Shown here in pieces: positions 44,347 through 58,525 of a stretch of 64,000 bases of DNA. The notes beneath the pieces were generated by a model that worked only from the letters and a program-made list of their open reading frames with translations, ran no database searches and was not told the origin of the DNA. The translations under genes and the position numbers were made by a program. This DNA is from an uncultured Acidobacteriota bacterium (lineage in GTDB: Bacteria; Acidobacteriota; Blastocatellia; RBC074), in the NCBI GenBank assembly GCA_963796275.1, contig CAWCKY010000001.1, positions 864,001 through 928,000 on the forward strand. The letters run 5' to 3'. How positions within the stretch are numbered: the stretch's first letter is position 1; each line of letters opens with the position of its first letter.

Positions 44347-47300
44347 TCAAATCTCAAATCTCATATGGTGTTCCTGTAGACTGATTACGCTCAGCTTCTC
44401 ATGCCGCATCGCGGCAATTGCGCTCGCCGCCGCATTGGCTCCCGTCAGCGTTGTGAAAGTGACGACGTTGTACTGCATTGCAGCGCGGCGAATAGCCTTC
44501 TCATCGTAAAAAGACGAACGCCCGAGTGGAGTATTGACGATCAAATCGATCTCATCGCTCTTGATCAGGTCGACGACGTTCGGACGTCCTTCGTTGACCT
44601 TATAAACGCGGTCGCAGGGGACGCCCGATTCATTCAGGAAGCCTGCCGTACCGCGCGTCGCGATGATTTTGAATCCGAGCTCGTGCAAACGCTTGGCTAT
44701 GCGAACTGCGTTCTTCTTGTCATTGTCGTTGACGCTGATGAAAGCGGTGCCTTCGAGCGGAAGGCTGGCGTTCGTCCCCATCTGCGCTTTGGCGAAGGCC
44801 AGGCCGAAACTATCGGCCATTCCCATCACCTCCCCGGTCGACCGCATCTCAGGCCCCAGAACAGGGTCGACTCCCGGGAATTTGTTGAATGGAAAAACCG
44901 GTTCTTTGATGAAGAAGCTGTTGACCTTCAGTTCATCGGGCAACTGGAACTCGCTCAATTTTCGCCCGGTCATCACCAGAGCGGCGATCTTCGCGAGCGG
45001 GACGCCCGTCGCCTTCGAAACGAAAGGTACCGTGCGCGAAGCCCGCGGGTTCACTTCGAGGACATAAACGATGTCATCTTTGATTGCAAATTGAATGTTC
45101 ATCAGCCCGCGTACCTCGAGCGCACTCGCAAGCTGGCGTGTGTACCTGCGCATTGTTTCAACATGTTCGGGCTTGACCATGTATGGCGGCAGCACGCACG
45201 ACGAATCGCCGGAATGAATCCCCGCCTCTTCGATGTGCTCCTGAATGCCCGCGATCACGCATCGCGAGCCGTCGGCGAGCGCGTCGACGTCGACCTCAAA
45301 TGCGTCCTCGAGAAAACGGTCTATCAGCACGGGCTTCTCCGGCGAGGCTTCGACGGCGTTTTTCATGTAGCTTTCCAGGCTCGCTTCGTCGAAGGCGATC
45401 ATCATCGCGCGCCCTCCCAGAACGTAACTCGGACGAACGAGTACTGGATAACCGATCGATGCTGCGACGTGCTTCGCATCCTCGACCGTCACCGCCGTAC
45501 CGTTGACCGGTTGCGGAATATGCAGATCGGCGAGCAGTTTGCCGAAGCGTTTGCGGTCTTCCGCCAGATCTATCGATTCGGGGCTGGTGCCGATGATGGG
45601 CACGCCCGCCTGTTGCAATCGCATCGCGAGATTCAATGGCGTCTGACCGCCGAACTGAACTATGACGCCGTCCGGTCTCTCCAGTTCGACGATGTGCATG
45701 ACGTCTTCAAAAGTTAGGGGCTCAAAGTAGAGACGATCGGATGTGTCGTAATCTGTTGAGACGGTCTCCGGATTGCAGTTGACCATGATGGTCTCGAATC
45801 CGGCATCTTTCAGCGCAAATGATGCGTGACAGCAGCAGTAGTCGAACTCGATCCCCTGGCCGATGCGGTTGGGACCTGAACCGAGTATGGCGATCTTCTT
45901 ACCATCCCTGGGTCCGGCTTCACATTCGCTCTCATAAGTAGAATAGAGGTAGGGAGTGAAAGACTCGAATTCAGCGCCGCAGGTGTCAACCCGCTTATAG
46001 ACCGGTTTGATGCCCTCGGCCTGGCGCCTTGCGCGGACCTGGTCCTCGCCGCATTTGAGCAGGTCTGCCATCCGCACATCGGAGATGCCCATCCGCTTCG
46101 CCTGATAAAGCCGTTCAGCGGAGAGCGATGTCAGGCTCTCCTGCTTAAGATCATTTTGAAAATCGGCGATCTGTTTGAGCTGAGTCAAGAACCACCGATC
46201 GATGCTCGTCAATTCGTAGATTTCATCCAGCGTCCAGCCGCGCTCGAAGGCCGCATTCAAATAATGTATGCGCTCAGCATTGGGGATTATCAGTTTGCGG
46301 CGCAGGGTCTCATCGTCAGGATATCCGGTGAAGGCCGGTCCGCGATTTTCCAATGAGCGCACTCCTTTGAGAAAAGCTTCCTTGAAAGTGCGGCCGATGG
46401 CCATCACCTCGCCCACTGATTTCATCTGCGTACCGAGACTATCTTCGACGCCGGGAAATTTCTCGAACGCCCACTTGGGGATTTTGACCACGATATAGTC
46501 GATCGTCGGTTCGAATGATGCCGGAGTCTTCTTCGTGATGTCGTTCGGGATTTCATCCAGGGTATAACCGACCGCGAGCTTAGCGGCGATCTTCGCGATC
46601 GGAAAGCCCGTGGCTTTTGAAGCCAGGGCCGATGAACGCGACACGCGCGGGTTCATTTCGATGACCCGCAAATCTCCGTTGCGCGGATTCACGGAAAATT
46701 GGATATTAGATCCGCCCGTCTCGACGCCGACTTTGCGAATGATCTTGATGGCGGCGTCGCGCATTATCTGATATTCGCGATCGGTCAGCGTCTGCGCGGG
46801 AGCCACGGTTATCGAGTCGCCGGTGTGCACGCCCATCGCATCGAAGTTTTCGATCGAGCAGATGATGACGACGTTGTCGGCCAGGTCGCGCATCACTTCA
46901 AGCTCGTATTCCTTCCACCCGATGATCGATTCTTCGACCAGTATTTCGCTGATCGGACTGGCTGTGAGACCGCGCTCGGCGATCTCCTCAAGCTCTTCGC
47001 CGTTATAAGCAATGCCGCCGCCGGTGCCGCCGAGCGTGAAGCTCGGCCGGATGATTATCGGGAAGTTGGTCTCTTCGGCGGCCACCAGCGCTTCCGCCAT
47101 GGTGCGGCAGAACCTGGCCTTGGGCATCTGCAACCCTATCTCATCCATCGCTTTTTTGAACAGCAGGCGATCTTCGGCGATTTTGATGGCATCAAGTTTG
47201 GCGCCTATCAATTCGATTCCGTATTTTTCAAGCACGCCTGATTCGGCTAGCTTGACGGTCAGATTCAAAGCGGTCTGTCCACCGACGGTCGGCAGCAGGG

Positions 47301-47553
47301 CGTCTGGCCGTTCGCGTTCGATGATGGCAGTCAGCGTCTCGACTGTAAGCGGTTCGACATAGGTTCGGTCGGCTAATTCCGGATCAGTCATTATCGTGGC
47401 TGGGTTGGAATTGACCAGAACTACATTGAAGCCCTCCTGTCTGAGCGCCTTGCACGCCTGAGTTCCGGAATAATCGAACTCGCAAGCCTGACCGATGACG
47501 ATCGGCCCGGAGCCAATGATGAGAATCTTATTTAGATCAGTTCGTTTGGGCAT
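44347..47553 (-). CDS. carB: Carbamoyl-phosphate synthase large subunit
   Basis: Starts [24 protein letters not shown]; two ATP-grasp halves and a C-terminal MGS domain. Confidence 0.98.
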
Positions 47554-47742: not shown

Positions 47743-49821
47743 TTACACTTCTTCGCGCTTGCGCAATCTCAATTCGGCGAGTTTCCATCGTGGCCAGTTC
47801 GATGTACGGTTGTAACGGCTGTTAGCTTGCGCCAGGCCGTCGACGCGCGTTGAACTGCAATGTGGGCAGATACCGTGTAGACCGCGCGACAACTTTTGAC
47901 AGACATTGCAAACCGTAAATTCCGGTGAAATAGTTAATGCAGATACTTCTGTTCGATGGTATGCATGAGCGATGATCGAAGCCAGATAATCGGATGACGG
48001 GAGTCCGACCCCCAGCCAGAGATCGGTGGTCGCATTCCAGACTTGACCTCCCTGCAGTGCGCCTTCAATTTCGATTTTTTCGGTTGCGCTGATTTCGGTC
48101 GCCACCGGCAGTTTGACGGAGTTGGTGTAGAAGACCTCTTCCTCATCCAGGTTTCCGATCGACTGAGGGACAATCGTGGGACCGAATTTTCTGACATCGA
48201 GGCGCGCGAGCCGGTGCGGAGCAATGATGTCGTGCGACTCTGCGATCAGGAATCGGACTTTATGTTTGGCCGATAGACGTTCGGCTTCTGCGTTGAGATG
48301 AGTCACGACGCGTCTGGCAAAATCACGGCTGGCGAGAGAATCTATGAGCGAAGAGCCGGTCACGGTCTCAGTCATTTCGGCGAGACCGACCGGGCAGATG
48401 GCGTGTGCGGTCCAACTCAGCGGTATGAACGGTTCCTTGTCCGGGCGCATTGCAAGCATTGCCAGTACGCCTGCCTCACCGCGAGCGAGCAGCTTCTCCA
48501 GGAAAACCCTCTTTTCCAGCGACGCCTGGGCCGCAAGTTCGAGAAGAGATGTCAAAAGCTCGAATACCTTTACCTGGTTGAATTCAGAACGGTAGCCGAC
48601 GCGCGGAAGATTTATCGCAACCGATGAGAAGATGGCCGCACGCCACTGCCAGCTATCGCCCGCCCTTTGCAGCTTGTCCGCGCCTACGCCGTAGCGCGCG
48701 GTGAACACCGATTCATCGCTGTTGTTCGGGTTCGTTCTATCGAAAGCCAGCACGACGCCGCCGCGCTCGCTCGCGACGCGGGTTACGAGATCGAGGAAAC
48801 CACGGTTTCCGGGATTGGCTATGAATTGTTCGTTCAAATGGAGGATCGGACGCGGCCCAATGAATGAGAATCCCTGGCCGTCGCCTTCGAGATAGACCTC
48901 GAACAATATTTTGAGGAAAGTGCGCGCGACTTCGCCCACCGAACCGTAGCTGATGCTGAGTTTCTCGCCTCCCGCGCCTACTATCGGTAGCTTGAGGAGG
49001 TAAGAAGGCGCATCCCAATCCAGGTGCAGGTCGCATCGCACCGGTTGCCCCCCGCGCGCGATCGTCGGGGCAGAAAGCTCGAACAATAATTTTTGTGCGA
49101 GCTGCCTCATCTCTCGCTGGTTGAGACCTACAAGCATCGGTGCGAGCGCGAAGTTGACCGAATCCCACGCGAGCGCATCGCTGAAATACCCCTGTAAGGC
49201 CGCGCTCAGCGTGACGAAATGTGACGCCAGCACCTCGGGCCGTTTGGCCGGGCGCGACCCCGCGAATCCACCCGGCAGCTTGATACCGTGGCGTTTGATG
49301 AAATCGATTGTGCCGATCATGTTCGACGGACGGTCGACTTCTCCCAGGTTTTCAATATGAAAATCGCCTTCCAGATGGGCATTCGCCACGGCATCCGAAA
49401 AAACATAGAGCATGGCGAACTCGCGTTTGATCGCTTCAGCCAGAGCGAGGCTCGTGCCCTCAGGCCCGTGCACTACGGCTGATTCGCTCGACACCGATTG
49501 GATGATGCGGTCTACGTCATAGACCGGAACGCCCAATCTCGAGTGCGCGCTGTATTCAGTCATTAATCCGTATTCGAGCAGCTTTGCATCAACGAGCCCG
49601 CGGATCAGCGGCGCGGTCAGCGCCCGGATGCCGGAGCGTTCTATCTGTTCTTTGACCTCGTTAGCGATCTGTTGCGCGATCTCCGGCGCCAGATTGGTTT
49701 CGCGTACAAGAGCATCGGTTATGCGTTGAGGATCGAAACGCGCATATTTCTCATCCGATTGTCTGACGAGCAGTTCGGATTCGGTCAGGGTGATATTTAC
49801 TTTTTCCTGAAGTATATTCAT
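47743..49821 (-). CDS. Class III anaerobic ribonucleotide reductase (NrdD) homolog with ATP cone, predicted catalytically inactive
   Basis: ATP cone (FDPQRITDALVRET..LTAPLIR), AHLEGDFH, ARGGQ, INLPR, YTNS, SPEFTVCNVC and CPHC are present. The glycyl-radical loop and active-site Cys are substituted. Confidence 0.85.
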   Translation of the reverse strand: MNILQEKVNITLTESELLVRQSDEKYARFDPQRITDALVRETNLAPEIAQQIANEVKEQIERSGIRALTAPLIRGLVDAKLLEYGLMTEYSAHSRLGVPVYDVDRIIQSVSSESAVVHGPEGTSLALAEAIKREFAMLYVFSDAVANAHLEGDFHIENLGEVDRPSNMIGTIDFIKRHGIKLPGGFAGSRPAKRPEVLASHFVTLSAALQGYFSDALAWDSVNFALAPMLVGLNQREMRQLAQKLLFELSAPTIARGGQPVRCDLHLDWDAPSYLLKLPIVGAGGEKLSISYGSVGEVARTFLKILFEVYLEGDGQGFSFIGPRPILHLNEQFIANPGNRGFLDLVTRVASERGGVVLAFDRTNPNNSDESVFTARYGVGADKLQRAGDSWQWRAAIFSSVAINLPRVGYRSEFNQVKVFELLTSLLELAAQASLEKRVFLEKLLARGEAGVLAMLAMRPDKEPFIPLSWTAHAICPVGLAEMTETVTGSSLIDSLASRDFARRVVTHLNAEAERLSAKHKVRFLIAESHDIIAPHRLARLDVRKFGPTIVPQSIGNLDEEEVFYTNSVKLPVATEISATEKIEIEGALQGGQVWNATTDLWLGVGLPSSDYLASIIAHAYHRTEVSALTISPEFTVCNVCQKLSRGLHGICPHCSSTRVDGLAQANSRYNRTSNWPRWKLAELRLRKREEV

Positions 49822-49876: not shown

Positions 49877-50677
49877 TCACCATTTACAAAAATGATCGAG
49901 CGGCCCGGCTCCGTGCCCCAGCTCCGGCGCAGCTCGTAACGCCGCTTCCAGATATCGCTTGGCGCGGGGGACGGCCTCGGGGATTCCTTCGCCTCGTGCG
50001 AGCAGCGCAGCAATGGCCGATGCGAGCGTGCAGCCAGTGCCGTGCGTATTGCGCGTCGAAATCCGCGGAGCACGAAAGACATGAAACTCGCGCCCGTCAT
50101 CGAGAACATCGATCGCCTCAGCATCGGGCAAGTGACCGCCCTTGACGAGGACCGCGTTTCGATGGGAGCCATGTGATTGCGCCCGGCACAACTCATGCAG
50201 CGCGCGGGCAGCCCGTTTCATCCCATCCGCGTCTTCTACTTTCAAGCCGGTGAGCAATTCAGCCTCCGGGATGTTGGGCGTAATCACATCTGCGAGCGGA
50301 AATATCCGTTCGATCAATATTTTTGTGTCATCAATCAGCTGGTAACCGCTGGTCGACATGATGACCGGGTCCAGTACCACATTTTGCAGAGCGTAGCGTT
50401 CAATCGTCTCAGCCACGACATCAATGATCTCCCGGTTCGGTAGCATCCCGATTTTGACCGCAGCGATCTTGAAGTCACTGATGATCGGATCGATTTGCGC
50501 GCGCAGCACATCAGCAGGATTATGGTATGCGCCGTATACGGCAACTGTATTCTGCGAGGTAATGGAAGTGATCGCCGCCGTGCCGTAGCACCCGAAAGCA
50601 GCGAAGGTTTTGAGATCAGCCAACACCCCCGCCCCGCCCGAAGGATCGAATCCGGCTATTGAAATCAGTGTAAGCAT
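49877..50677 (-). CDS. thiD: Hydroxymethylpyrimidine/phosphomethylpyrimidine kinase
   Basis: IAGFDPSGGAG, VKIGML, LDPV, TPNIPEA, VKGGH and THGTGCT motifs; GAGGAG RBS. Confidence 0.95.
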   Translation of the reverse strand: MLTLISIAGFDPSGGAGVLADLKTFAAFGCYGTAAITSITSQNTVAVYGAYHNPADVLRAQIDPIISDFKIAAVKIGMLPNREIIDVVAETIERYALQNVVLDPVIMSTSGYQLIDDTKILIERIFPLADVITPNIPEAELLTGLKVEDADGMKRAARALHELCRAQSHGSHRNAVLVKGGHLPDAEAIDVLDDGREFHVFRAPRISTRNTHGTGCTLASAIAALLARGEGIPEAVPRAKRYLEAALRAAPELGHGAGPLDHFCKW

Positions 50678-51109
50678 GATAAAGATCTACTCCTCAGCAC
50701 GAAGCCGAGACATTCGTTTAGTGGGATTTCATTCTTTAGGTGCTTACCTGTGCCGGAAGAAGCGCTAATACTACTCAATTCTTGGGGCGTATTAGCTACC
50801 TCAATCAGCTTCCGTATCGACCAACCGATCGGATACACGTTATCTGGTGGGTTCGTCCACGGATAATAGCATTATATTGGGTAGTGGTAAAGAGAAGGAC
50901 TATTCGGGGGGTAAAAGAGAGAGAGAGATTCCATGTCTACGGATTTAACCACACCCCTGAATTTACCGCTAAAGAATTAAAAGCTCGGATTGTGATTGAG
51001 TGTGATGAACGATAATTCTGAAGGATTGTGGCCTATGGTGGATGGGAGGAAATATCGACGGATTTGCCCCCCCGGTTTGGCGAATTACTTGAGCGGGGTG
51101 CGCAGTCCA

Positions 51110-51298
51110 ACTTGCTCAACATTTGCTGGAGTTTTACGAGGATTTCAGCGCTGGGGCGTCGTTTTCCGTTGATGACACTCGATAAATGTGCTGGGTCAAT
51201 TCCGGCCAGTGCGTCGAGTTTTCTCAGACTGATTTTTCTTTTTTTGGATGGCTCGCTTCCCTCTCGAAAGGGTTTCGGCAGCCTCTTTCTTCGCTTTT
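51110..51298 (-). pseudogene. Start-less XRE-family HTH remnant
   Basis: Manual minus-strand translation gives KISLRKLDALAGIDPAHLSSVINGKRRPSAEILVKLQQML; no start codon found in frame downstream of the STAND gene. Confidence 0.55.
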
Positions 51299-54200
51299 TT
51301 AAGAGTGATTATCGTCGTTTGAGCGAAACACTTTCTTAACTGTGATTGGTGAAGAACCCCCGATCTGACTGATTCTATCAAAAATGTCCGGGCGTATAAG
51401 CAATTCGCACCCTTCCAATCGATGGTGTTCCGAGTTAATCGCGTCATCAAGTGGACGAGTATTCCAATATCGAAGAACAACGGCATCCTGGTTTGAAGAG
51501 TCAAGCAAGGTATATTTTCTTGAGTCCGGATAGGGGCGTAGGTGACAAGTGGCCATAAGCATTGGGTGTAGTACTAGTACAGGGAATAAACCTAATTTAT
51601 CATCAACACGCTCAACACCCACTAAAGGCCCTCTAAAAGAGTAAATCACTTTAGATGTCGGTTCCTGAAGTTGAAACCAAGTTTCCGCCTCCCCAACAGC
51701 AAGTAGGGGTGAATAAGAGTCCGGACTTTGAACTATGTCCGGAAATTGAATATCAGATACCGCCGTCACATAGCCAGCGAAATCGTGCCATCCACGGATG
51801 ATAAGCTCTCGCTCAACATAACCACAGCGAACCCAGCCTGAATATTCATCATCTCCCCTTATAGTCTCTACACCGGCAGTATAATCGTACTGCTCGTGAG
51901 GGAGTGACAAGCGTGGCCTGACAGTCCGACTGTGCCATTTGGCTATATAAAGAGGTAGATTAGGTAGAATGCTCAAAGCAAGTTCAAAGTTCGTTTCAGC
52001 CCTCCACAGCCCTGATCGCCAGAGTGTTTCATCGACGCCATTCAAAATTTCGTTCAAAGCACACTCAAAAACTTCATCTTCCCAGGCAAACATTCTTAAC
52101 TGAGGTAATTTATTGTAAAGCCAACTTGTGGCAGCTTCTTGGCGTAATCTTGATCTTTCTTTGTGAATACTGGAACTCTCCCAAATATAATTGAATCGTT
52201 TCGCTACCAGCGATGGGAATTCAGGCCAGAAACCGGCAATATGTTCAATCCGCTCATTACAGTCCAATGAGAGAACAGCGACTTGTTTTCGCTGACCTAT
52301 GTTCTCACTTATAGAATAGTCAAAGTTTCCCAAAACGGTTATTGTCTCAATGCCAGCACGTTCGAGAAGATTTTTTGCCAGTACCCGAAGTCCAAAAAGT
52401 CCGGACTTTGCAAAGCCTTGAAATTCATTCTGCAGCGCTTTAGTTATTGGGTATGATGTTGGCTCCGCTTCAACTATGACCCGCAAGATTGCAAGGATCG
52501 AACTGAGAGGGGTATCAAGGCTAAAACAATAGCGCAATGGTGCAATGGCTAGAGAAGGGTATAAGCTAAGAATTTTTGCCAAACCAACAAGTGCAGTTGT
52601 TTTTCGCTTCAACTCTGGGTGACTTACTCTAGCCAGAAGAAGGGCAATGAGTGATTCATCAATTGACCAACTAGGCGTCTCCTCAGGCAAATATGTCTCA
52701 ATAATACCGGCATCATGTTCACAATCTGGGAGCCTGTGACGAATAACTTCATATGCCGCTTGCCATACGGAATTTGCGTTCGTGCTGAGTTCAGATATCG
52801 CACAGGCCTCAACCAGATGATGCGTCAATCCACGAACTACCCCTCGCTCATTCAGCCAGTACACAACTTCATCTGCAAAATGTTTTTCAGCATCCTGGGG
52901 TGAGAGAGCAAGAGCATGAGATAGCCAAGGTAGTTGTTCCATATCACCAAGGCATAAGTACCCTCCTCCTCCGCGAGAGTGTGCATATGCTAATATTAGG
53001 GCAAACGAGGCAGCGCCAGTGTACCCGTATCTTTCAAGCCCTTCTGCGAGTATCTTTTAGCGGCTCTGCCTCATGGTAAAAGGCATTTTCTCTGGCGAAG
53101 CATCTTAGCAGGCGCAAGGCATCTTCTCCCCTATTACTCTGGAGCAATTCTAGCAAGCGAAAGCCGATAGCATTAACGATGCGGCTTTGATTCTTATTAT
53201 TCTTGTCGAAGGTTCGCCAAGATGAACGAATAGTTCTCATCGCTTCCAATAGTCCTGCGTTGGCGGGAAAGGTCGGGGAATCTTTAAATAATAGATAAGG
53301 ATCAGATTTTGGAACGTATGCCGTATCTTCCTGTCTTTCTTCCGGATCAATAGGGTCTTCTGCATGCGGCAAGAAAAGTCCGTGAGACCTTGCAAATGTC
53401 TGAAGCTGTTCGTAAGCGGTCGTATTGAACTGCTTGGCATCACCGTGAACCTGAGCGGCAAGTATGCGAAGCGATTGCTCGCCCTCGCTTACACTTATTG
53501 CAAGGATGTGCTCAATGGTATTTAAACGCTGTGCTACATCTTTGATACCATCACCGTTTGTCAAAGTAGATTCCAAGAAAAATATGAGAAAAGGATTGGC
53601 AATGTCTCGTGCATTATCTATTACTTTAATAATACTTTCTTCATACCGCCAATCAATTTGGCCTCCGTCCTTAATAAGAGAGCGCACCATTATGAACGAC
53701 GCTGCTACAATATCAACTTTAGCTATCGCGCCAACCCAGTGGATCGGTGCATACTGTGTTCCTTTGCCATCAGTGTGAGCAACTGCGGCGTTTACTAGAG
53801 GTTGCGTCGCAGCGAGTGCGTTGAGCGCGTGTCGTATGCTGCTTTTACGGAGTATGGGAGCGCTCTCCAACAACTCAAAAATTGTGGCGTCCTTGCGAAA
53901 GCCATAACCGCAAAGTTGCACTGCAACAGATTCCCATAGTTTTTGTGCCTCTTCTTCCTGTCCGCCTGCATTCAAGGCCAGTGCAAGCAACATATCCTGT
54001 TGTGCGAGGGTTTCGTACAACCATCCACGGGATTTATTTTCCTTTATCAGTTGCTTAAATTCAGAAATTAGGCTTGGGTTCAGCTCTGGATTATCTGCAA
54101 ACGGCAACAAGATTTTGATGAAGTCCGCTGGCGTCAATGGGCCGCTCTGAGAATTTTGAAGCGAAACAGTAGTTCCATTCGAAATCTCAACCAAATGTTT

Positions 54201-57200
54201 CAATGCGTCTTCCCAAGCTCTTATATTGCGAAGTAGACTTAGCGCACGAGTGATCGTTTGATGGATGATTCCATGTACAAAATAAAGATCGCAAGCCCTC
54301 GGCTCACCAACAAAGGGACGCGTGTCGCTTGCAAGGTTATTCAAAGCCGCAAGGATATTTACTTCGGCTCCATCTTCATCTAGTTTAGCTCGCACTTCAG
54401 CCTGCGAAAGTGCAACAACAAAACGCAGCCAATTTCTATACCAACCGATTCCTTTGATGCTTGCTAAAACTGACCCAAGAATCTGCGGGTGATATCTCTG
54501 CCGCAATTCTGATACTCTCAACCCAAAGCTTCATTACCCCGACATCAGCCAATACTTTTCCCTTATCAAGTCCGATGTCAATGCCGGATGGATGAGGGTA
54601 ATGTTTGGTCACTTTGTTTGGGTCAGCACCAAGAGTTAAGCATTCAAGAATAAGTTCAGGCGAATCAGTCCCATATAATATTTCTTTAAGAATCTCCTTA
54701 GCCCGTACTACTTCACCATCGGCAAAAAGGGCTCTTGCTAGCTCGGCTTTAACTTTGCCCGCAATCGCCGAAGACAGCTTCGCTTCTTCTAGCAGTCGCA
54801 AAAGGATAGATGAGCCGCCGAACTGTCTCAGACGCTTAAGAATAAGATTTAGGTACTCGCCTGGGAGATTGTCAACACTGCTTAGCCACGTGTTAACGCT
54901 TGGATAAACACTTTCTATGCCCTCAACCCGAAGTGAGCCGTGAAATTCTGCATCAGCAAACTTTATCCAGTCCTCTCTCACTGATTCCCGGATCTCATCT
55001 ATGCTCGACCTTCCATCTACATCTAAGTACTCCTCCCAAGGCGCAACTTGCCCTGCATCATCGCAAAGTGAGCAGAATAATAATCCTACCCACTCTGGAA
55101 ATGTTGGCTTTCCATCGAAAACCAATCGCTCACTTAGCATCTTTGCGCCGAAAAGTGCTGCAAAAGTGCGTCCATATAAATCTAAATCAAGTAACTTTTG
55201 CTCAAAGCACGTCCAACATGAAGAATTTAGTTCAGCCAAACGTGCCAATGCGGCCCAGTCCAATACTTCCGCAGCAATGTAAGTCGCCAGTTTCAAATTT
55301 TCTTCAATTGCGGGTCTCGAAAATCCTGCCTGTACACTACGCGAGACAAAATCCATATTAACGGTTTGTAGCGCTTCTTGATTCTTCCCTGCTCGGCGCA
55401 AACAAGGGATTAGAAAGCGATGCGCTCTTGCATCCGCGAAGATCCCCTTACTCTTAAGCCAAATGATAACCGGCTCAATTATTGCGGCGATTGACCCTCC
55501 CTGATTACGGATACGTTCAGTAATGAACCGCCGGAAACTCTCATGATAAATACGGAACCCACCTTGGGCTGCGGATTGATTAAGAACCGGGCCAAGATAA
55601 ATCAGCGCCTGGGAGAGACGATGGGCAAGATCAAGGCGAATCTCTCTAAGTTCGGTTTCGCTTAACCCAAAATCTACGAGCCCCAGCAACTCCGCTACGA
55701 TACCCGTTGAATTTTCACCTTCAACGGTTCGTAGCAACCAGTCGTAATAGTGTGAAATTGAACCTTCAAGTTGTGGGACTTGTTGCAAAAACTCCTCGGA
55801 GTCAAAAGTTTGATCTTGGAGAAGGCTGGAAAGTATTTGCTTACACAGGAATGTTGCATAAAGTGGGTTGCCTTCTGAACGGTTATACAACTTAGTGAAT
55901 AACTCTTCTGTGGACTTCTTGAACCCTAAATTGTCGAGCGCGGCCATAATGCCGAAGTTGTAGGCGAGCTCTACTACCTCATCATATCCCCACTCCGGCA
56001 TCGTAAGCGTTTCAGCGTTTGCGTATAATGGAGTGAGATGAGCGCCTGGTTGCGATCCAATGACAAGATATACTCCGCGAGGGAGATTGAGTGTGACTAG
56101 TTCTTCAACAATGTCAATTTCACCTGCCGTGAGGTCTTTTACTTCACCAAAAACGCGTGAGATGTGATCTACCCCATCAACAACCAGAATGACTTTATCT
56201 GCAAATCCATGTGTAATGGCATTATTCAACATCATCTCAAGCTCGCGCGGGCCTGCCGAGTAGAGTGGCTGGTGCAGCCCCCGCAATTCCGGACAAGATT
56301 GAATTAAGTCATAAATCAGATTACCGAAAAGGACATTAGATGTAATGCGTCGTTGAACCTGCTCATCACCGGGCTCAAGATAGCAATAGTGTTTGGCGAC
56401 AAGATGCCCGTCATGACTTAGTTCATCGACCAATTCTGTGAGTAGCCAAGATTTCCCAGAGCCTGGTGGGCCGGTGAATATAACTCGCTGAGAATCAATT
56501 TTCTCCCGAAACGCATCAAGTAGAAATTGGCGCTTGATCAGAATGGAATTATCTATCGGAAACTCTTGAGCAATTCGGCCAAAGTCTCTTTGTAATTGCA
56601 GAGCGTTTTCTACATCAGCTTGAGCGAGGGTCTCATGGTTTACTCTGGCACGCTCTGCTCGTTTAATCAGGATTGCAGCTGCGTCAGCAAGATTCCGCCC
56701 GTGATTCGGATAATGTCCAATCCCCACTCCGTCAGCCAAAAGGCGCAATAGCAACTCTTCCAACTGACCTGGACTCCTTAAGTCAAGGGACGCTCGTGGG
56801 CACTCCAATTCGATGACGAGCTTCTTTGAAAAATCCACGAAGTCCTGTCGGTTGATGTCTCTTGCTTTTTCCAATGGTTCCCATAATGCAGATTGCCCTT
56901 CTGGCCAAATCTTATCGGTATTCAGCCGGTAAAGCTTTGTGATATAGCCGTCAAATGAAGGATCAATACTCGACGGTTCGAGTAAGTCTACAAAAGCAAA
57001 ATCTCTCGGGGTACCCATCGATGCGCAAATACGATACTCCTCAACAGTTGACTTACCATCATTGAGTAGACATCGAACTAGATTGTCAATTCTTAGCTTG
57101 CGATTTTCCGTTGTTAAGTCGCTCTGTTCAAAAGTGCGTTGCGAATCTGGAGTAGATTTTATCTGGCGTTTGACGATACTTGAACCATAATGAACCGTGA

Positions 57201-57342
57201 GATCATCAAAGCGGTCTCCCTCAAACCCTTTACGGTCAACCGTAACCGAATCAAACCCTTTCACCAAACCAAGAGCTAGAAAATAAGCAGTGAACAAATC
57301 CTGATAAGCATACCCGTAATGGGCTGCCCTTAAATCACTCAT
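51299..57342 (-). CDS. Avs-like anti-phage STAND protein of ~2010 aa (N-terminal Cap4-like PD-(D/E)xK nuclease, NACHT-like NTPase, long helical region); two frameshifts at ~54490 and ~53056
   Basis: GYAYQD..FDDL..KRQIKS; Walker A GPPGSGKS; Walker B LVVDGVD; SEGNPLY. ORFs 54436-57342, 53034-54521 and 51299-52942 join with single-base corrections. The region is visibly AT-richer than its flanks. Confidence 0.8.
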
Positions 57343-57427
57343 TTTGATATCTCGGAACTCTTACGCTTTTCGTAGATAGTAAATTACCTGGGAAGGCAAA
57401 TACTTTCTAAACGTTGCTTTAACGTGA

Positions 57428-57555: not shown

Positions 57556-58224
57556 TCACACCGTGGCTCTTATGATCGTTTCGATGTTGGATTTTAAGCA
57601 TTCCGCATCGGCGAATAGTCGGATTGCCGCAATCCCCGCCGCTCCCCGCCGCAAAGGCTCTTGATAGTTGGTGAGGTCGATGCCGCCCAGAGCCAGGACG
57701 GGGATATTCACTGATCTGCAGATTTCGGCGAAATTTTCGATACCAATCGGTGGCCCATAGGCCCGTTTCGATGGCGTGTCGTAGACCGGTCCGCAGACGA
57801 TGAAATCCGCACCTCCCGCCTCGGCAGTGCTGGCTTCGGCGAGCGAGTGCGTCGAAACGCCGATGATGAAATCATTCAAACCTCGGCGCCGGACAGCTGC
57901 GCGGGCCTCAGCTGCAGGAAACGATAGGGCTGGTAGATGCACGCCATCGGCACCCGCGGCAATCGCGACGTCCATCCGATCGTTCACGAGTACTCGCGCA
58001 CCATGTGGATGTGATGCGGCAACTGCGGCGCGCGCCAGCCGATAGAGCGTTCGCGCATTTAAATCTCGCTCGCGAATTTGAACGAGCTGGCATCCGGCTC
58101 GCGTTGCCTGGCGGATTATGTCGATTTGGGCAGCTTCAGGCTCAGGATTCCCAGGGATTCGGCGGAGCGCCAGGCGGTCGCTTATCAGGTAGAGTAATGG
58201 GCTGGTTTGTGGCAGTCTCGGCAA
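57556..58224 (-). CDS. thiE: Thiamine-phosphate synthase (ThiE/TenI family)
   Basis: LYLISDR, VQIRE, VNDRMD, GVHL, STHS, GPVYDTPSK and ALGGI motifs. Confidence 0.85.
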   Translation of the reverse strand: MPRLPQTSPLLYLISDRLALRRIPGNPEPEAAQIDIIRQATRAGCQLVQIRERDLNARTLYRLARAAVAASHPHGARVLVNDRMDVAIAAGADGVHLPALSFPAAEARAAVRRRGLNDFIIGVSTHSLAEASTAEAGGADFIVCGPVYDTPSKRAYGPPIGIENFAEICRSVNIPVLALGGIDLTNYQEPLRRGAAGIAAIRLFADAECLKSNIETIIRATV

Positions 58225-58525
58225 TGGTTGAATGGGCTACCGCTTGCGTGGTGGATCCCAGGCTCGTCAGAGCCTCTACGCTTTCATGAAATTTAAGGAT
58301 ATCACGCATTCCGGCGAGGAGATTGAGCACGCCTAAACCTGTGACCGCGCCTCGCATATAACCGCTCGTCAGGAATGTCTGAATCCAGGGGGCATTCAGT
58401 TTGCCGGTAAGGAAATAAAGAAAAACGTTATCTTCCCAATACTGTGTCCATGGCAGGATCAGGAGGAGAATACCTACCTCAAAGCAAATCAGGATATATA
58501 CGATGACTGTTATTTTCGCCGACAT
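58142..58525 (-). CDS. Small hypothetical membrane protein
   Basis: Hydrophobic segments FEVGILLLILPWT..WEDN and RGAVTGLGVLN. Confidence 0.7.
   Translation of the reverse strand: MSAKITVIVYILICFEVGILLLILPWTQYWEDNVFLYFLTGKLNAPWIQTFLTSGYMRGAVTGLGVLNLLAGMRDILKFHESVEALTSLGSTTQAVAHSTIAETATNQPITLPDKRPPGAPPNPWES

Follow-up and report, generated by a model that had tools for sequence, protein, structure and literature searches.

A conserved NrdD homolog that lacks the radical machinery of class III ribonucleotide reductase and lies next to thiD in an uncultured Acidobacteriota bacterium

We analyzed a stretch of 64,000 nucleotides (nt) from the genome of an uncultured Acidobacteriota bacterium of the class Blastocatellia (assembly GCA_963796275.1, contig CAWCKY010000001.1, positions 864,001 to 928,000 of the forward strand). 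We call this whole stretch the window and give positions within it. On its minus strand, the window encodes a homolog of NrdD, the catalytic subunit of class III (anaerobic) ribonucleotide reductase (RNR), in which the residues for radical chemistry have been replaced. We refer to this radical-dead nrdD as nrdD*. An earlier reading of the window (the original prediction) had described it as a full-length pseudo-enzyme. The gene and the parts of its product that matter below, with residues numbered in amino acids (aa), are:

47743..49821, minus strand: nrdD*, a coding sequence of 692 aa with an ATG start and its stop codon at 47743-47745.
49567..49770, minus strand: degenerate cone-like N-terminal domain (aa 18-85; Pfam ATP-cone), with VRQSDE where a true cone has VxKRDG.
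49321..49359, minus strand: the former HxHD and beta-A cysteine region (aa 155-167), HIENLGEVDRPSN, with H157E, D158N, and Cys replaced by Asn167.
49045..49059, minus strand: ARGGQ (aa 255-259), a loop-2-like element that is kept and aligns with loop 2 of P. copri NrdD (SRGGNQ).
49024..49035, minus strand: Cys263 and His266 (VRCDLH), present in at least 98% of the family and in 0% of 55 catalytic NrdDs; both are found in all 46 aligned family sequences.
48679..48705, minus strand: the former finger-loop tip FTARYGVGA (aa 373-381), with no Cys.
48394..48405, minus strand: His473 and Cys476 (HAIC); in catalytic NrdDs, position 476 is always Gly.
47857..47910, minus strand: zinc ribbon CxxC...CxxC (aa 638-655), kept, and invariant in alignment A1 (described below).
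47812..47832, minus strand: the former glycyl-radical loop AQANSRY (aa 664-670), with Gly replaced by Ser668 and Tyr by Arg669.

The product of nrdD* is a full-length, well-folded derivative of the class III catalytic subunit. Its frame has 692 codons with no internal stops, as read from the open reading frames (ORFs) of the window, and it matches the Pfam family NRDD (PF13597; 231.6 bits, E = 2.4e-68) over aa 118-688, or positions 7-560 of the 562 in the profile. The original prediction was right that this is an uninterrupted ORF of 692 aa, collinear with class III RNRs. (The strand is minus.) The protein scores 202.8 bits against the NCBIfam equivalog model for NrdD (TIGR02487), which is under the cut-off of 326.35, and it is far under the cut-off of each of seven further NrdD equivalog models. 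An AlphaFold2 model built from an alignment of 70 sequences has a mean predicted local distance difference test (pLDDT) of 89.2 and a predicted template-modeling score (pTM) of 0.88. When we compared this model to the PDB with Foldseek, ranks 1-36 were all occupied by class III RNRs of S. thermophilus, P. copri, T. maritima, and T4, with E between 3e-28 and 2e-16. The top entries were 9dca, 8p23, 4coj, and 1hk8 (TM-scores of 0.6-0.75), and class I RNRs ranked next, at E around 1e-9. A look-up in a protein atlas returned only clusters that are named NrdD.

We compared the protein to canonical NrdDs in three alignments: a MAFFT alignment of the nrdD* product, 11 relatives, E. coli NrdD, and the NrdD of Methanobacterium virus PhiF1 (alignment A1); an hmmalign alignment of 300 sequences; and a profile alignment to P. 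copri NrdD (PDB 8p23). The catalytic set comprised 55 NrdDs from our hit lists, defined by both cysteines and a loop with Gly followed by Tyr, His, Phe, or Asn. We considered 58 positions to be canonical, each with one residue that is common to at least 85% of these 55 proteins. For the comparison of positions, the family of nrdD* was represented by 128 sequences; counts of residue states and of alignment windows were made in 46 (the nrdD* product and 45 loci whose hits span 1800 nt or more). The family retains 39 of the canonical positions and alters 19. The altered positions include HxHD, the beta-A Cys, the Pro-Ala-Glu of TPAE, Gly668, Tyr669, Arg665, and several Gly and Phe residues of the barrel.

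At the former glycyl-radical loop, RRVCGY from E. coli and DRVTGY from PhiF1 align over AQANSR in the MAFFT alignment, so the radical Gly corresponds to Ser668. The hmmalign alignment with the 55 catalytic NrdDs and the profile alignment to 8p23 agree: Ser668 lies under the radical Gly, and no Cys lies under either catalytic Cys. The loss of the radical Gly and of the thiyl Cys, which the original prediction had claimed, was borne out by all three alignments. Across the 46 family sequences, position 668 is Asn in 24, Ser in 10, Thr in 6, and Gly in 2, and it is absent from 4; among the 128 sequences it is Asn in 84%. Position 669, canonically Tyr, is Arg in 98% of the family, and the canonical Arg665 has become Gln. 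(In loci L095 and L098, the former radical loop reads RDGYF, with Gly-Tyr-Phe as in catalytic NrdDs, and both catalytic cysteines are missing. Four thiD-linked members, at L087, L088, L094, and L096, end near residue 635 and have lost the whole domain of zinc ribbon and loop; they retain Cys263, His266, His473, and Cys476.)

The cysteines are missing throughout the family. Class III NrdDs have finger-loop motifs MGCR or MCCR, in which the Cys at the tip becomes the thiyl radical (bioRxiv 10.1101/2022.04.23.489257). The finger-loop Cys of MGCR overlies a Cys-free stretch of the nrdD* product, which has no Cys anywhere in aa 360-394. The beta-A Cys, present in 87% of the catalytic NrdDs, overlies RPSNM; Asn167 takes its place here, and Thr does so in 67% of the family. 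Neither the finger-loop window nor the beta-A window contains a Cys in any of the 46 family sequences.

The elements that hold the substrate's triphosphate have been replaced as well. In P. copri NrdD, HxHD and the loop that follows the third-last strand hold this triphosphate, and the loop contributes a Glu that connects the substrate, the NxN flap, and the Tyr after the radical Gly (PMC11226230). In the nrdD* product, HxHD reads H-I-E-N, TPAE reads S-H-D-I, and the NxN flap reads S-A-V.

Other elements have been kept. Gly257 of ARGGQ is present in 100% of the 128 family sequences, the Asn of NLPR is invariant, and YTNS is likewise kept in the family. A stretch reading SRPAKR is identical to that of P. 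copri NrdD. If we map the residue ranges in PMC11226230 onto our alignment, SRPAKR and ARGGQ would both lie on the specificity-site side. In the ribbon, C638, C652, and C655 are present in 100% of the family and of canonical NrdDs, and C641 is also invariant in alignment A1, which makes this a putative zinc site. The original prediction had listed ARGGQ, INLPR, YTNS, and both CxxC pairs as retained, and they are. It had also placed every motif exactly: ENLG at 157-160, RPSN at 164-167, ARGGQ at 255-259, FTARY at 373-377, INLPR at 403-407, SHDII at 529-533, YTNS at 565-568, CNVC at 638-641, CPHC at 652-655, and AQANSRY at 664-670.

An activase for NrdD is not apparent either. No nrdG adjoins nrdD*, as had been noted before, and none reaches the cut-off genome-wide: the best score against TIGR02491 is 59.9 bits, versus a cut-off of 126.1, in a genome that is 94.7% complete. 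A search for a second, intact nrdD-nrdG pair in this genome found none, and nrdD* is its only match to PF13597. With the radical Gly, both catalytic cysteines, and the triphosphate-holding residues replaced, and NrdG not found, we predict that the nrdD* product is unable to perform NrdD chemistry.

The genome has one other RNR catalytic gene, for a class II-like alpha subunit with a TSCPD tail. (This is its only RNR alpha of the class I/II type, with Ribonuc_red_lgN, barrel, and TSCPD regions, at about 432138-433644 of G000:C6, or 805-2571 and 2321-3304 of L003 on the minus strand. It is split into overlapping frames of 327 aa and 588 aa; as the gene is essential, we take this to be a frameshift or else an error of assembly.)

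We then considered how widely such proteins occur and whether they are under selection. Of 8000 candidates scored in a word-indexed protein search, 430 passed E ≤ 1e-3. The 120 best of these are 64-91% identical to the nrdD* product and 678-739 aa long; the named sources are metagenome-assembled genomes (MAGs) from Blastocatellia or Acidobacteria, and the proteins are labelled as anaerobic RNR. An exhaustive search of representatives at 50% identity gave 1832 matches at E ≤ 1e-3, with 384 at E ≤ 1e-30. Among 301 sampled genomes from the phylum, strong matches (45-69% identity) were found in 2 of 2 genomes from family f1 of the class, 1 of 2 from f3, 4 of 4 from f4, 1 of 1 from f5, and 0 of 16 from f2. 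Identity of 45-50% is held across the families of the class, and the family of nrdD* is a large one in Blastocatellia/Acidobacteriota.

At 52 related loci, each representing a species, the match region is open in one frame in 50. (The other two, L104 and L105, are unconfirmed, and both begin at a contig end.) In the 22 closest pairs, which share sequences and so are not independent, the ratio of nonsynonymous to synonymous substitution rates (dN/dS; Nei-Gojobori) is 0.036-0.113 for nrdD*, 0.107-0.189 for thiD, and 0.023-0.064 for carB. Pooled over 13 disjoint pairs, dN/dS is under 0.2 in every domain: 0.035 for aa 118-360, 0.054 for the former Gly loop and tail, 0.089 for aa 395-635, 0.094 for the cone-like domain (so constraint persists there), 0.131 for the finger region, and 0.197 for the zinc ribbon. 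nrdD* is kept under strong purifying selection across one bacterial family and beyond. The original prediction had argued for selection on a non-catalytic role over simple decay and had suggested orthologs as the check; the open frames and the dN/dS values, which are not near 1, agree with it, and close orthologs do not retain the catalytic motifs. Because the losses are focused on catalytic positions, while the frame is intact and selection is strong, nrdD* is a conserved non-reductase derivative of NrdD and not a decaying gene. It must have some other job.

To place the family among other NrdDs, we built a FastTree phylogeny (LG+gamma) on the match columns of a hidden Markov model (HMM). From 300 sequences, 286 covered at least 70% of the columns, and leaving out 5 of every 6 of the close homologs P0002-P0120 gave 187. 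One node with 99 leaves (support 0.96), including the nrdD* product, contains no sequence with the full catalytic triad. The sister of this dead clade is a Synergistaceae-type NrdD, P0141, followed by the clade of P0124 (supports 0.99 and 0.98). In this tree, which was made by one fast method from the best 150 hits of one query, with states called from alignment windows, the dead clade appears nested within catalytic NrdDs of the double-Cys type (RPYC / CCRL / RITGYF), and a single origin is the supported reading. (Many of the nearest catalytic NrdDs are 1000-1700 aa long and carry one to three insertions; in P0127 and P0142, which we scanned, these are inteins with LAGLIDADG.)

Within the dead clade, the window's family is the sister of a family of about 760 aa whose sources are mostly Hydrogenedentes by name. 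Proteins of this Hydrogenedentes type (P0170 and relatives, a subset of P0169-P0271) are about 740-790 aa long, with a true N-terminal ATP-cone followed by a cone-like domain. Their barrel ends near profile position 500 of 562, and both the zinc ribbon and the Gly loop are missing. Another branch of the dead clade, a basal one, is of the type of G023, a genome from another class. This branch (L025 / P0154) keeps a TPAE-like SPAES loop and H-x-H-Q, while its Gly position is occupied by Asp and the catalytic cysteines are absent. Since this branch keeps SPAES and H-x-H-Q, degeneration differs among the branches of the dead clade. (G023's class is represented by only 2 genomes. A metagenome scan for more loci of its type, using an alignment of 2 sequences, gave one locus at 21% identity, which was of no use.)

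The N-terminal domain requires a correction. The original prediction stated that the ATP cone is kept, which is overstated. There is a Pfam match (PF03477), but it is marginal, at 27.2 bits versus a cut-off of 25.8, and the domain is degenerate. True cones begin with a basic Lys-Arg pair, as in KKRNG of P0125, VKRDG of P0170, and MKRDG of E. coli NrdD; in P0125 and P0170 they form an extra N-terminal domain. In the nrdD* product this pair, which we take to bind phosphate, reads Gln21-Ser22. Its cone domain aligns instead with a second, degenerate domain reading VRTSxD or similar in catalytic relatives (P0124, the second domain of P0125, and P0141). It follows that what the family inherited is a cone-like linker domain lacking the Lys-Arg pair, a domain that it has in common with those catalytic relatives.

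The genes around nrdD* point to thiamine synthesis, a link that is absent from the original prediction. These genes are:

49877..50677, minus strand: thiD, the kinase for hydroxymethylpyrimidine (HMP) and HMP phosphate (HMP-P), 55 bp upstream of nrdD* (TIGR00097, 302.5 bits versus a cut-off of 204.95).
57556..58236, minus strand: thiE, an open frame of 226 aa from stop to stop (Pfam TMP-TENI).
44347..47553, minus strand: carB, 189 bp downstream of nrdD*.

In transcription order on the minus strand, the window has thiE, a low-GC island of about 6.5 kb, thiD, nrdD*, and carB. The thiD gene is the sole full-length ThiD gene in the genome. The N-terminal part of the thiE frame is ThiE-like, yet there is no in-frame ATG, GTG, or TTG upstream of 57987, and the start-limited ORF is 143 aa; the gene must use a non-standard start codon or have a truncated 5' end. 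The island that separates thiE from thiD (51028-57360) has a GC content of 0.46-0.50, versus about 0.53-0.57 in its surroundings. It encodes a NACHT/AAA ATPase of 968 aa with a weak match to Avs1b (PADLOC, E = 3.4e-10), along with ORFs of 495 aa and 547 aa that have no Pfam, NCBIfam, or PADLOC matches. It looks like a defense island that was inserted in a thiE-thiD operon.

In relatives, thiE and thiD are adjacent or overlapping. Among the related loci, thiD lies upstream of nrdD* on the same strand in all 39 with an upstream flank of 900 bp or more, and among the 43 loci with a piece of thiD, 29 have a gap of -5 to +35 bp from the stop of thiD to the start of the match. thiE precedes thiD in 16 loci. 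In its bacterial family, nrdD* comes last in a tight thiE-thiD-nrdD* unit whose stop and start codons often overlap, and the genes outside of this unit vary by lineage (DUF2911 with enolase, carB, or others). In a sample of 61 genomes from the class, 59 encode ThiD, and thiD is followed by nrdD* in 13 of 13 genomes of family f1. Outside of the class, G023 encodes a homolog with 33% identity in the order thiE-thiD-nrdD*, with a 20-bp gap. We consider this linkage to be moderate evidence of a functional tie to the thiamine-pyrimidine branch.

We made several other analyses of the locus. A promoter scan gave 5 promoter-like sites versus 3.2 ± 1.4 expected, one of them upstream of thiD (50891-50863, minus strand); a scan for terminators gave no terminator-like site on the minus strand, and neither scan was informative. 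The predicted complex of the nrdD* product with ThiD (score 0.00; mark 0.32) speaks neither for nor against binding. A loop insertion in the ThiD of family f1 was tried as a mark of an interface and rejected: it is variable, and it is missing from several members of f1 and from G023. A gene for a CYTH (triphosphate-tunnel) protein lies directly 3' of nrdD* in a single case, L047 10467-11066 (G089, family f4). The sole RNA match in 10 related loci is an Acido-Lenti-1 small RNA 3' of carB (L067 11775-11819, minus strand; 37.6 bits versus a gathering threshold of 37).

We tentatively favor the reading that the nrdD* product is a non-radical, ligand-binding, probably dimeric protein that is functionally coupled to ThiD and ThiE, and we consider this quite possible. 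The protein would form an NrdD-like dimer. Its most constrained part, aa 118-360 with SRPAKR and the loop-2-like ARGGQ, would bind a nucleotide or a metabolite that bears a pyrophosphate. The ligand-bound protein would then tune the thiamine-pyrimidine branch (ThiD/ThiE) or report on it. The precursor of that branch, aminoimidazole ribotide (AIR), is a ribonucleotide of the purine pathway. The original prediction had offered a sensor of ribo- or deoxyribonucleoside triphosphates, (d)NTPs, as one option. Binding at the specificity site and loop 2 may be possible; sensing via the catalytic site or a true a-site is unlikely because the substrate-triphosphate motifs are gone and the cone is degenerate.

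A bolder version of this proposal holds that an RNR-derived pseudoenzyme was recruited to the synthesis of vitamin B1. Its gene would be the third in a translationally coupled thiE-thiD-nrdD* unit, and the protein would bind either a nucleotide or a ligand resembling HMP pyrophosphate (HMP-PP) or thiamine pyrophosphate (TPP), perhaps with a new Cys2His2 site in the former radical barrel. It would gate ThiD and ThiE by purine or nucleotide status, or carry out a so far undescribed non-radical step on a phosphate of the thiamine pathway. In this full form, the proposal is rather unlikely.

Several observations weigh against a thiamine-linked sensor. First, nrdD* is beside thiD in 0 of the 17 thiD loci shown from outside f1, and 13 of these 17 have thiE beside thiD. 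The carriers in f3, f4, and f5 hold nrdD* away from thiD, with no common neighbors. Within f1, then, the adjacency of nrdD* and thiD may be one inherited rearrangement, with G023 as the only independent support. Second, carB is just as frequent a neighbor in part of the family (of the 42 loci whose downstream sequence reaches 1500 bp or more, 23 have it within 1.5 kb on that side), which leaves room for a link to pyrimidines. Third, we found no TPP riboswitch at the gathering threshold in positions 40000-64000 of the window or in 10 related loci. Fourth, ThiC, ThiD, ThiE, and ThiL are all encoded in the genome, so no tested thiamine step is left for nrdD* to fill, and we rejected the idea that it stands in for a missing thiamine enzyme at those steps. 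Finally, the triphosphate motifs are gone, the cone lacks the Lys-Arg pair, and the mapping to the specificity site is a putative one, made by sequence alignment.

A new enzyme that works without a radical is the first alternative. The family has acquired its own conserved residues: 48 positions are at least 95% conserved in the family yet shared by under 20% of catalytic NrdDs, and these include Cys263, His266, Trp470, His473, and Cys476. The barrel may have been refitted with a metal or thiol site made of Cys263, His266, His473, and Cys476, and its substrate would be a phosphorylated thiamine-pathway compound or a nucleotide. Each of these four residues is at least 96% conserved in the family and absent from the 55 catalytic NrdDs, and 42 of the 46 family sequences have the pattern C-H / W-H-C. 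The class-level members L018 and P0123 lack Cys263 and Cys476 together, the active-site Asn of NLPR is invariant, and the operon is shared with two enzymes. But four loci have Ala476 despite keeping Cys263, His266, and His473, the proximity of the four residues in space is only presumed, and the known thiamine steps that we tested are encoded elsewhere. The four residues may form a new metal or redox site, and we think that an enzyme of this kind is unlikely, if well worth keeping in mind.

Alternatively, the nrdD* product could be a nucleotide-sensing regulator of pyrimidine or dNTP metabolism, acting on carB and the RNR genes, with thiD a mere bystander. The frequency of carB downstream fits with this, as does the distance of 189 bp here, and in G282 a relative with 28% identity is two genes away from a class II RNR. 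But a Pfam scan of the protein at E ≤ 0.01 found no helix-turn-helix (HTH) or other DNA-binding family, the cone is degenerate, and NrdR is already encoded in the genome. Also, whole sub-lineages keep thiD upstream without carB downstream. This role for the protein seems decidedly doubtful to us.

Could the protein still form a radical? Stable radicals do form in PFL-type enzymes (PFL is pyruvate formate-lyase) that carry Ala, Ser, or Thr instead of Gly (PMC11528403), and the nrdD* product has Ser668. A glycyl-radical activase might form a C-alpha radical on the Ser, Asn, or Thr at this position, and relocated cysteines might take over from the missing ones. The genome does encode such an activase: its best match to the NrdG model is a PflA equivalog (TIGR02493, 271.8 bits versus a cut-off of 231.75) beside the acetate kinase gene ackA, at G000:C6:103495-104184 (L002 1351-2205), and no PFL-like protein (PF02901) was found in the genome at its 94.7% completeness. 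We considered this orphan PflA as a conserved partner of nrdD* and rejected it, as the two do not co-occur in other carriers: a PflA-like gene at E ≤ 1e-30 is present in 0 of 2 from f1, 0 of 2 from f3, 0 of 4 from f4, and 0 of 1 from f5. (This tally includes one unpublished genome, G152, and none of our conclusions depends on it.) The published aminoacyl-radical enzymes belong to the PFL family, and NrdD was used only as an outgroup (PMC11528403). The residue at 668 is variable and its domain can be deleted, the finger-loop and beta-A cysteines are gone from 46 of 46 sequences, Arg has replaced the post-Gly Tyr in 98% of the family, and PflA does not recur in carriers, so this is not an aminoacyl-radical enzyme in the published sense, and we regard a hidden radical as very unlikely.

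The original prediction had also raised a regulatory heterodimer with an active NrdD. Canonical NrdD is a dimer with half-site behavior (PMC11226230), and three genomes from another family (G007, G026, and G042) hold both a dead-type copy (37-39% identity) and a canonical-type copy (24-26% identity). But neither the genome of nrdD* nor any other of the 9 class-level carriers, which include it, has more than a single NrdD-family match, and NrdG was not found, which makes this partnership highly improbable. The remaining option raised there, a decoy for phage proteins that target RNR, is speculative. As for a pseudogene in decay or a neutral remnant of anaerobic life, the loss of every catalytic residue and the oxic or micro-oxic habitats of class-level relatives elsewhere (PMC12816986) would suit it, but the frames are intact, dN/dS is lower than for thiD, identity is maintained across the families of the class, and the structural model is of high confidence, so we give it almost no credence.

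If the dead clade is real (99 representatives at 50% clustering, from the best 150 hits), it would be among the larger radiations of pseudoenzymes from a radical enzyme, and it would show that the RNR barrel and its allosteric apparatus can be reused without a radical. Recruitment to vitamin B1 synthesis, if true, would be the first functional assignment for an apparently very large and unrecognized clade of radical-dead NrdDs. Annotation pipelines label these proteins "anaerobic ribonucleoside-triphosphate reductase," which wrongly implies anaerobic dNTP synthesis in many genomes of Acidobacteriota and Hydrogenedentes. The linkage to thiE and thiD offers a concrete and testable entry point to their function.

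The claim that no inactive NrdD family has been described is nearly right. Among the papers listed by our literature searches, none but the exception below describes one in its title or the start of its abstract, and the sections that we used of a large RNR phylogeny preprint (bioRxiv 10.1101/2022.04.23.489257) mention no inactive class III members. The exception is a table entry for Chloracidobacterium, "NrdD-like paralog, no NrdG" (PMC12816986). Like nrdD*, this paralog is from the Blastocatellia, lacks an activase, and has a host with other RNRs. In the part of the paper that we drew on, the case consists of the table entry, without a residue analysis, a family definition, a selection test, or gene context. 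The aminoacyl-radical enzymes resemble the nrdD* product in having a residue other than Gly at the radical position (Ser in the nrdD* product). But those enzymes belong to the PFL family, retain the thiyl Cys, and are paired with activases (PMC11528403), whereas in the nrdD* family the Cys is gone, the residue is mostly Asn, the domain is sometimes deleted, and no co-occurring activase was found in the other carriers.

Compared to catalytic NrdDs with the double-Cys finger loop (similar to that of T. maritima), the nrdD* product has the same fold and the same order of domains: cone-like, barrel, zinc ribbon, and C-terminal loop. Its nearest sequenced catalytic relatives are P0124 (40% identity) and P0125 (35% identity), from Methylomirabilia / Methanoperedens MAG records. 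It retains 39 of the 58 canonical positions, including NLPR, YTNS, and the four ribbon cysteines. In contrast to the catalytic proteins, it is without the radical Gly, the finger-loop and beta-A cysteines, HxHD, the Glu of the TPAE loop, the NxN flap, and NrdG, and it scores under the equivalog cut-off. The Hydrogenedentes-type sister family is closer in state: both are conserved NrdD barrels without the radical machinery, and both are mislabelled as reductases. But the Hydrogenedentes type has a true extra ATP-cone and no ribbon or loop domain, while the window's family has no HTH and no true cone, keeps the ribbon, and is linked to thiD. A more distant parallel comes from the beta-herpesviruses, which encode catalytically inactive homologs of the class I RNR large subunit. 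These belong to another RNR class, act in viral interactions with the host, and are unrelated to nrdD* by descent, but in them, too, the RNR fold has been kept for a non-reductase role.

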